A stretch of 64,000 bases of DNA from Psilocybe cubensis (taxonomy: Eukaryota): NCBI GenBank assembly GCA_017499595.2, contig CM039005.1, positions 2,294,001-2,358,000 of the forward strand, in the 5' to 3' direction. The notes under the pieces were generated by a model. That model saw only the letters and a program-made list of their open reading frames with translations, ran no database searches and was not told the DNA's origin. Both the position numbers and the translations under genes were made by a program. Below, one piece after another: positions 27,290-28,422 of this stretch (its first letter is position 1; every line of letters starts with the position of its first letter).

Positions 27290-28422
27290 ATGCGTTTCGG
27301 TATTTTCTTCCAGATTGTTGCTGTATGCACCTTTGCCAGCTCTGCATTGGCGGCGCCGATGCCAGTCAACGACAAGCCGGGGCATCCAGCTTCTCCGCCA
27401 CCCGCGAACGCCAAACCACCAGCCCACAATCCCGCCCCTGCCCCTGCGCCAGGAGCACACGCACCCGCACCCGCGCCAGCAGCCGGCGGCGCCAGCGGCG
27501 CCAAATTCGAAGCAGGCGACATCGTGCGCATCAAACCCGTGCACATCCTCAACGGCGACGGCGCTAACGTCCAAGGCGGCGCGCCCAACAAACCGAGGCC
27601 CGCCGTCGTCGTCATCAAGCCCGACGCCGCAGGGCTGATGGGCGTGGCGCCGATTGGCCACGCGCTCCCCGGCGCGTCGCACACGGACGACCCGAGCAAG
27701 TATGGGATCCCGAATTCGGCGAATGGGGACCCGAACCATTTGATTAGTACGGGTGTGCCGGCGCAGATCCATGTGAGCAATGTGCAGCCTGTGGCTGGGA
27801 GGTATGGGTTGCCGGATAAGCTTGCACCAGAGCATATACAAAGTCTGCGCGGGAAGATTGGTGTGTCTTTTTTTTGTTTTGGTCTTTTTTGGTGTTGGTG
27901 TCATGAGCGCTAATTTTTGGTTGCAACGCTTTGGGTAGAGGAGAACATGGACTCCATGATCGCTGCGAAGAAACAGAAAGTGGAGGCGGAGAAGGCGGAG
28001 AAGGAGAAAGCCAAGACTCCAGCTCCTCCAGCGCACCCGGCTGTTGGACTGTACGATGACCTCCCACCTTTAAAGAACGCCGCTGCTGCTGCCAAGCCCG
28101 CGGGTGGACTGTACGACGACCTCCCACCCCCTGCCGCCAAACCTGCCGCCGCCAAGCCTGCTACCAACAATGGTACGTGCCACTTCCCACAGACGGTTCA
28201 AAATATGGCTGATTGGACTGATGATGGCTTCACTTGACAGCAGCTGCGAACACCCATCCCGCCCCTGCCCCCGCCCCCGCCCCTGGAGCAGGCACAGGCT
28301 CCAGCGCGCCCAACTCGAAGAAACGCCCACTCGAGCGTCGCGCGCTGTACAGGCGTCTCAACCCAATCACCGGCGAGAGACTCTCGAGGCGCTTGCACGC
28401 GCGATCGCGCCGGGACTGGTAG
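27290..28422 (+). CDS. Secreted Pro/Ala-rich protein with a MazF/PemK-like domain and an Arg-rich C-terminal tail
   Basis: Signal peptide MRFGIFFQIVAVCTFASSALAAP, PA linker, then a globular domain at ~27503-27860 (FEAGDIVRI..PRPAVVV..GLMGVAPI..LAPEHIQSLRGKI). Introns at ~27861-27938 and ~28173-28240, two GLYDDLPP repeats, tail KKRPLERRALYRRLNPITGERLSRRLHARSRRDW*. The gene model is solid; the domain call is by eye. Confidence 0.75.

Follow-up and report, generated by a model that had tools for sequence, protein, structure and literature searches.

A divergent MazF-fold domain in a probably secreted protein of Psilocybe cubensis

The gene JR316_0009243 of the mushroom Psilocybe cubensis lies in a 64,000-nucleotide (nt) stretch of contig CM039005.1 (assembly GCA_017499595.2, positions 2,294,001 to 2,358,000, forward strand), which we refer to as the window and whose first letter is position 1 in all coordinates below. 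Our analysis suggests that its product contains a divergent eukaryotic protein domain of the MazF fold (27503-27859, +) and that this product is probably secreted. MazF/PemK nucleases are treated as a speciality of prokaryotic toxin-antitoxin systems, and a search of the literature (open-access full text and bioRxiv) found neither a native eukaryotic family with the MazF/PemK fold nor a description of JR316_0009243. What appears to be new, judged from sequences and models, is a known fold in an unreported setting, namely a fungal, intron-bearing and partly secreted family with its own conserved His-rich pocket. An RNase or toxin activity is plausible, and the ecological target is a guess.

Predicted fold and sequence kinship of the domain

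Translation of 27503-27859 (+) gives exactly the 119 amino acids (aa) that a preliminary description of this DNA had likened to the MazF/PemK toxins, with the blocks FEAGDIVRI, NKPRPAVVV and GLMGVAPIGH and the end PDKLAPEHIQSLRGKI. These are residues 72-190 of the protein and are numbered 1-119 here; the next base, 27860, opens a codon that an intron interrupts. A single-sequence AlphaFold model was unusable (predicted local distance difference test, pLDDT, 37.4). AlphaFold2 run on an alignment of 25 sequences returned a model with a pLDDT of 85.8 and a predicted template modelling score of 0.82. In this model, strands at residues 6-10, 32-38, 45-53, 79-82, 87-90 and 94-96 are followed by a C-terminal helix at 109-118, giving an SH3-like barrel closed by a helix. 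When the model was compared with the Protein Data Bank (PDB) by Foldseek, all 36 matches listed were MazF/PemK-type toxins, with probabilities of 0.97-1.00. The best of them was 5cr2_B (E 8.2e-4, probability 1.00, template modelling scores 0.53/0.58).

A scan of 48,161 representative chains with VIA-align, which is independent of Foldseek, placed MazF/Kid-type structures in all of the top nine positions (Z 8.3-9.1, 88-100 residues aligned). CptN (Z 7.2), another Mycobacterium tuberculosis toxin (7.1) and CcdB (6.9) came next, and the ToxN-type structure 4ato scored 5.0. Tudor, PWWP and chromo barrels were present at Z 4.8-6.2 with about 51-66 residues aligned. In a second look with VIA, all 50 entries listed were of MazF/Kid type, and E. 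coli MazF (5cr2_C) was matched at Z 9.9 with a root-mean-square deviation of 2.9 A over 96 residues and 21% identity. Collectively, these comparisons of a predicted model indicate that the domain is a member of the CcdB/PemK-like superfamily fold, of the MazF/Kid type, over most of its length. The toxin-like assignment of the preliminary description was thus borne out at the level of the fold; a KOW/Tudor or unrelated fold had been named as the outcome that would speak against it, and MazF/Kid structures stood at the top of the comparison, with Tudor and PWWP barrels at Z 6.2 or less. MazF-type endoribonucleases cut single-stranded RNA at specific sequences without a metal and work as obligate homodimers whose active site lies at the interface. 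For the fungal domain, a prediction of a two-copy complex in which the alignment was not used scored 0.00 against a mark of 0.32 and weighs neither way on a dimer.

Pairwise BLASTP of the domain against E. coli MazF (NC_000913.3) returned nothing (E 33), and the likeness to MazF is therefore visible only at the level of profiles and structures. PemK_toxin (PF02452) was matched, below threshold, by three of 25 family members and was the sole Pfam family matched by more than one of them. The strongest match, of the relative P0007, covered profile positions 3-106 of 109 (E 0.0028, 18.3 bits), followed by P0009 (E 0.027) and P0016 (E 0.035). Among the PHROGs, the 'MazF-like growth inhibitor' family was matched by the most members (3/25, best E 0.067). 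Alignment of the fungal family to a 45-sequence MazF alignment with hhalign scored 27.3 (E 4.8e-4, 95 columns), and a second fungal alignment scored about 25.5-27.7 (E 1e-3, 91 columns). One hundred column shuffles of the first alignment averaged 11.1 (standard deviation 1.9, maximum 15.5) and its reversal scored 13.2; for the second alignment, the maximum of 100 shuffles was 17.5 and the reversal scored 11.8. The real scores lie 6-8 standard deviations above the shuffles. In a protein-language-model atlas, the clusters nearest to the domain were PemK/MazF clusters (0.93, 183-186 shared features), as were those nearest to a relative that lacks a signal peptide (0.94).

The fungal family and MazF share an order of blocks: GD, an [HR]P-hydrophobic strand, a V-A/V-P strand, N/Q-[LV]-K and the C-terminal helix. 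All four E. coli MazF blocks that the preliminary description had quoted are present in the actual sequence (NC_000913.3). Its claim that four blocks match in order and at similar spacing held for the order and for a likeness beyond chance (27.3 against a shuffle maximum of 15.5); the spacing is similar only roughly, at 27 residues from GD to RP against 19 in MazF and 58 from P50 to APE against 45. Behind its strand 3, the fungal family carries about 15-20 inserted residues. Together, fold and sequence make true, if very divergent, homology of the domain with the MazF/Kid/PemK fold highly likely, as opposed to convergence.

Some matches to PDB chain sequences were set aside. The best phmmer matches of the domain, to OprE porin (E 0.29), a thiolase (0.9) and an RPA-related protein (1.3), include no MazF and are put down to chance. 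The BP39L lectin, reached by the family profile at a whole-sequence E of 0.029, was rejected, each of its matching stretches having an i-Evalue of at least 300 on a short repeated G-[IL]-P motif.

The gene, its product and its relatives

A coding model with exons at 27290-27860, 27939-28172 and 28241-28422 (+) and GT..AG borders yields a 328-aa protein that is 100% identical to the NCBI hypothetical protein JR316_0009243 [Psilocybe cubensis]. The contigs of one sequencing run, X1, bear on the splicing; that this run is RNA is a guess, although spliced joints occur in its contigs, and no run listed for the locus is recorded as RNA. One contig joins 27195 to 27258 with a shorter side of 94 letters, placing a 62-nt GT..AG intron (27196-27257, +) in the 5' untranslated region (UTR), whose first exon extends at least over 27102-27195 (+). 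The first coding intron (27861-27938, +) has phase 1 and GT..AG borders; an X1 contig begins at 27938, and its 17 loose letters equal the end of exon 1. X1 contigs cover 27938-28172, and three of them end at 28172, where the splice model opens the second coding intron (28173-28240, +, GT..AG). A further contig (28294-28483) takes the 3' UTR to at least 28483. Given the GT..AG joint and the exon-exon loose end, we take the X1 contigs to be spliced transcripts. They leave 27486-27917 uncovered, a gap that says nothing on expression. JR316_0009243 is a real, transcribed and spliced P. cubensis gene, in agreement with the earlier view of the locus as eukaryotic and spliced. Two long open reading frames run antisense over it, at 27130-27900 (-) and 27266-28069 (-), with 256 and 267 aa. 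We set them aside as genes; they are most likely a by-product of GC-rich Pro/Ala coding, and the plus-strand model fits both the annotated protein and the spliced contigs.

In three other assemblies (X2-X4), the locus is present as unspliced DNA and differs by about 2.5%. Among the coding differences listed for them, 16 of 18 are silent, including all 11 in the domain (one in the codon of Arg32); these counts are partial, as 15 further differences lie outside the listing. The two non-silent differences, A68G and S69G, both fall in the Pro/Ala linker. The gene, domain included, is under purifying selection. Other differences were noted in passing: X2 and X3 lack 15 nt at 28131, an in-frame loss of five codons in the Pro/Ala-rich part of exon 2, and 2-nt differences at 27868, 27885 and 27930 all lie within intron 1.

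The protein begins, from the ATG at 27290 and in frame with the domain, with the hydrophobic segment MRFGIFFQIVAVCTFASSALA, whose 12-residue Kyte-Doolittle maximum is 2.31 at residue 5. By eye and by this hydrophobicity only, we assign a putative signal peptide to residues 1-21 (27290-27352, +), with cleavage presumed after ALA. A 50-aa linker with 64% Pro and Ala (residues 22-71, 27353-27502, +) leads to the domain, which is basic (isoelectric point 9.1, against 8.5 for MazF). Exon 2 (27939-28172, +) continues with a Lys/Glu-rich stretch and then a region with 45% Pro and Ala that holds two copies of LYDDLPP (28049-28069 and 28109-28129). Exon 3 (28241-28422, +, including the stop codon) encodes the dibasic KRPLERR (28321-28341) and an Arg-rich tail, with an isoelectric point of 12.0 for residues 291-328. 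LY[AD]DLPP occurs twice in each of P0003 (the P. cubensis protein), P0004 and P0149. In five of eight proteins checked (P0003, P0004, P0149, P0007 and P0009), KR-x-LE-[KR]-R stands before a short C-terminal peptide of variable sequence; the motif resembles a Kex2-type processing site, L-x-[KR]-R. In P. cyanescens, a C-terminal peptide released at the dibasic motif would hold two Cys. The Pro/Ala linker of the preliminary description is confirmed, as is a signal-peptide-like N-terminus, which recurs in six relatives, and the N-terminal segment makes it quite probable that the product enters the secretory pathway.

HMMER with the domain against 1.84 billion representative proteins retrieved eight proteins at E<=1e-3, its own protein included, and a profile search raised the family to 21 in all. 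No member has a Pfam domain or a name. All named members belong to the Agaricales, suborder Agaricineae, from the genera Psilocybe, Crassisporium, Flammula, Gymnopilus, Galerina, Agrocybe, Cyclocybe and Hypholoma. A pattern scan of the genomes of 185,579 prokaryotic species, built on an alignment of the copies without a signal peptide, gave 55 sites, none of which was confirmed by tblastn.

Seven proteins have a signal-peptide-like N-terminus: P0003 of P. cubensis, P0004, P0149, P0005 and P0009 of P. cyanescens, and P0006 and P0011 of Crassisporium. P0149 and P0005 (CVT25_006777 and CVT25_006778) have consecutive locus tags on one 104-kilobase (kb) contig and look like a tandem duplication. 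The other members have about 120-135 aa and no hydrophobic N-terminus (18 of the 26 rows of the tree set lack a signal peptide); the P. cubensis copy of this kind is JR316_0009718. These copies have short branches and are far better conserved than those with a signal peptide, one cluster at 90% identity or more (P0014 and P0150-P0154) spanning P. cubensis, P. cyanescens, Galerina marginata and Gymnopilus junonius. The signal-peptide copies of Psilocybe form a long-branched group (support 83/67), and the Crassisporium pair stands apart. The label 'secreted' needs three changes on the tree, and the starred branches force at least two. The number of secretion gains is nevertheless unsettled, because the resolution of the tree is poor, with 13 of 23 inner branches open, and the branch of P0003 is long. 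The family appears to have started from a short, conserved protein that lacked a signal peptide; fast-evolving signal-peptide copies occur separately in Psilocybe and Crassisporium, and the fold would have been sent into the secretory pathway at least once.

The pocket residues and possible functions

In MazF, the catalytic pocket is made up of the beginning of strand 2, the last part of strand 3 and the loop that follows it. The most conserved residues of the fungal family, H/R32, S/G52, H53, H55, P56 and T61, occupy these same places, with H90 and K/R95 further on, the latter within the N-L-K block that hhalign pairs with Q77-V78-K79 of MazF. Invariant in the family is H53 (25/25), as is P56 (25/25), followed by T61 (23/25), H90 (22/24) and H55 (21/25). 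From this coincidence we infer that the pocket has kept its role as the functional site. Arg32 aligns with MazF Arg29 in three hhalign runs, and neither R29 nor T52 varies among the 45 MazF sequences aligned. The catalytic Arg of the RP motif that the preliminary description had picked out does therefore align as claimed, but it is no family feature: column 32 is His in 23 of 24 relatives and Arg only in the secreted P. cubensis protein. Its second claim, that the catalytic Thr is replaced in PIGH, agrees with a straight register from the shared Pro50, which sets Gly52-His53 opposite MazF Thr52-Thr53 (column 52 is Ser in 18, Gly in five and Ala in two of 25 sequences); hhalign instead pairs T61 with T52 after a nine-residue gap.

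We propose that the N-terminal signal peptide would take the product into the secretory pathway and that the MazF-fold domain would be carried between Pro/Ala-rich spacers. Most likely, the domain would bind and cleave single-stranded RNA without a metal, using a changed acid-base set (Arg/His plus His), and the protein may act, as a guess, outside the hypha or once a competitor or grazer has taken it up. As a whole, this picture of an exported, very divergent MazF-fold domain with a retained pocket and metal-independent RNA cleavage outside the hypha or after uptake strikes us as evenly poised. Its central step, cleavage of RNA by the domain, is a tentative proposal from sequence and model that we place somewhat short of an even chance.

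Several observations weigh against this proposal. The register around the canonical Thr is unsettled between the two alignments. The P. cubensis protein departs from the family consensus at H32R, S52G, H55L and K/R95Q, changes that fit its long branch and may reflect a relaxed or altered function or specificity. One report describes Arg25/Thr48 of MazF-bs and Arg29/Thr52 of MazF-sth as essential (PMC10893535). No antitoxin-like gene was seen among the genes flanking JR316_0009243 in the window. With most members lacking a signal peptide and no antitoxin in view, the family would be a poor fit to a generally lethal RNase. Members without a signal peptide are, for that reason, placed in the fungal cytoplasm, and since these copies are conserved, the domain must be non-toxic to the fungus or some other control exists. 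The idea that secretion replaces the antitoxin is weakened accordingly, the majority without a signal peptide being also the highly conserved part of the family. On the other side, a second report describes catalytic residues that 'roam' within the MazF family, such as H59/E78 of MoxT and R73/D75 of Kid (PMC3879964), and since they do so among subfamilies, the changed residues do not exclude a nuclease.

The same pocket can be read without any chemistry. The MazF-type fold would be kept, nuclease activity would have been lost or never present, and the His-rich pocket (H32, H53, H55, H90) would bind a metal, a small ligand or a macromolecule; the secreted Psilocybe copies would then be matrix- or wall-associated binders, or carriers of a Kex2-released C-terminal peptide. 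We count this as a real possibility, if one on the doubtful side of even. Four conserved His would suit a site for a metal or ligand just as well as one for an RNase, the canonical Thr is out of register, and CcdB shows that the same fold works without nuclease activity. Copies without a signal peptide that keep 90% identity or more in Psilocybe, Galerina and Gymnopilus, with no known antitoxin, suggest a housekeeping or regulatory protein more than a toxin, and both the Pro/Ala-rich linker and mid region and the conserved dibasic motif before the variable C-terminal peptide would suit a binder or peptide carrier. However, the top structural neighbours are the RNases MazF and Kid (Z 8.3-9.9) and not CcdB (6.9), the conserved residues lie just where MazF has its catalytic pocket, and, as noted above, catalytic residues are known to shift within MazF toxins. 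Moreover, the P. cubensis protein has R32 and L55 in place of two of these His, which excludes a metal site made of all four as its function.

If the likeness were convergent, the domain would instead be a small SH3-like barrel without kinship to MazF, of a Tudor/KOW/PWWP-like or novel kind, which falls nearest to MazF by chance. Here too some results count against kinship with MazF. JR316_0009243 has no significant sequence match to any PemK model: Pfam returned no family at E<=10 for the domain or the whole protein, so the comparison with PF02452 suggested in the preliminary description gave no match for this protein, and its best relative stayed below the gathering threshold of PemK_toxin (18.3 against 23.1 bits), with 22 of 25 members giving no match. 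NCBIfam matched none of the 25, and neither phmmer of the domain nor the family profile reached MazF among the PDB chain sequences. The hhalign probabilities are just 32% for the first fungal alignment and 21% for the second. SH3-like barrels are common, Tudor, PWWP and chromo barrels do appear in the VIA scan, and Z values of 7-8 are frequent among unrelated folds, so that those of 9-9.9 are just moderately above background. Despite these modest Z values, we keep the fold assignment because the matches are uniformly MazF-type, coverage is nearly full and the sequence signals concur. The MazF-type matches span 88-100 of the 119 residues, the C-terminal helix included, against the roughly half-length matches of the Tudor and PWWP barrels; the top rows of all three structure searches are MazF/Kid-type; Pfam, PHROGs, hhalign and the language-model neighbours agree independently; and the conserved blocks stand in MazF order. 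We therefore regard convergence as improbable. An annotation artefact, pseudogene or bacterial contamination, for which the bare label 'hypothetical' and the stretch left uncovered by X1 contigs might speak, is largely refuted already and scarcely credible, given three GT..AG introns, of which probable-RNA contigs show two through a joint or a loose end, ordinary fungal genes on either side, three further assemblies that carry the gene and whose listed changes within the domain are all silent, orthologues or paralogues in at least nine named Agaricineae species, and the prokaryotic pattern scan that confirmed no relative.

A more specific version of the exported-RNase proposal can be put forward as speculation. 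The acidic LYDDLPP repeats together with the L-x-[KR]-R site may form a covalent, protease-removable pro-region that acts like an antitoxin, filling the RNA groove until late secretory processing releases an active exported MazF-type toxin. Export would add to the protection, and the non-secreted copies would be stored defence RNases or regulators with a His-His site. We consider this reading as a whole unlikely; under it, the protein would be an active exported eukaryotic toxin of MazF type and the first native fungal case of a toxin-antitoxin nuclease turned into a secreted weapon.

Compared with known systems, the domain is closest to MazF, Kid (PemK) and ChpBK, which it resembles in predicted fold over almost its whole length, block order, the Arg at the place of R29, conserved pocket residues, size (about 110-120 aa) and basic charge. 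Unlike these, the fungal gene belongs to a eukaryote and has three introns, encodes a signal peptide and long Pro/Ala spacers, has neither an antitoxin gene nor an operon, and stays below the Pfam threshold. The family differs further in His at the position of Arg29, in Ser/Gly-His at that of Thr52-Thr53, and in an H-x-H-P...P-T...Y-G-L-P motif within the insertion after strand 3. JR316_0009243 is monocistronic, whereas a type II toxin is defined by an adjacent, co-transcribed antitoxin in a prokaryotic operon. Because antitoxin and operon are missing and the match is below the Pfam threshold, the protein falls outside the definition of a type II toxin. CcdB and ToxN/CptN share the barrel topology, but their structural match is clearly weaker than that of MazF/Kid and comes with no sequence signal; gyrase, the target of CcdB, is presumably not an obvious one for a secreted fungal protein.

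Fungi have ribonuclease toxins and effectors of their own, among them the ribotoxin alpha-sarcin, ageritin of Cyclocybe aegerita and RNase-like effectors, some of them cytoplasmic and without a signal peptide. A possible ecological role is shared, that of small basic proteins attacking the RNA of competitors or grazers, and the cytoplasmic forms recall the non-secreted branch of the present family. Their fold is unrelated, however, and none is among the structural neighbours listed.

If the homology is accepted, a toxin fold has been kept and diversified in one mushroom lineage. This raises the questions of how such a fold persists in a eukaryote without an antitoxin, how Arg/Thr could be exchanged for His/Ser-His while RNA cleavage is kept, and whether mushrooms use it against bacteria, other fungi or grazers. 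A sequence-specific RNase would offer a new tool enzyme of eukaryotic origin; a non-catalytic protein would mean that a toxin fold was co-opted for a different job.

Genomic surroundings

The flanking genes all lie on the minus strand. An enolase-superfamily gene (MR_MLE_C) occupies about 22.3-24.0 kb, a WD40 gene 24.7-25.2 kb and a Tup1-like gene (Tup_N and WD40) 30.7-35.1 kb. They bear out the earlier remark that no antitoxin is adjacent. A tblastn search of the window with the protein found no second copy of the family. The domain exon has a GC content of 0.62 and a third-position GC content (GC3) of 0.75; GC3 is 0.43-0.52 in the enolase-like and WD40 neighbours and 0.69 in the WD40 part of the Tup1-like gene, and the GC content of the window is 0.47. 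Since the Tup1-like neighbour also reaches 0.69, this composition is not diagnostic of a foreign origin.

Low-complexity sequence is found downstream. The intergenic frames 29734-30288 (-) and 28851-29300 (-) hold poly-Ser, Thr/Ala repeats and Phe/Leu-rich runs, and the one of them that was scanned had no family match. The 1006-aa frame of the Tup1-like gene (32052-35072, -) has long low-complexity runs on both sides of Tup_N, made up of RE/RD repeats such as MRDVRD, poly-Gly/Val and poly-Gln.

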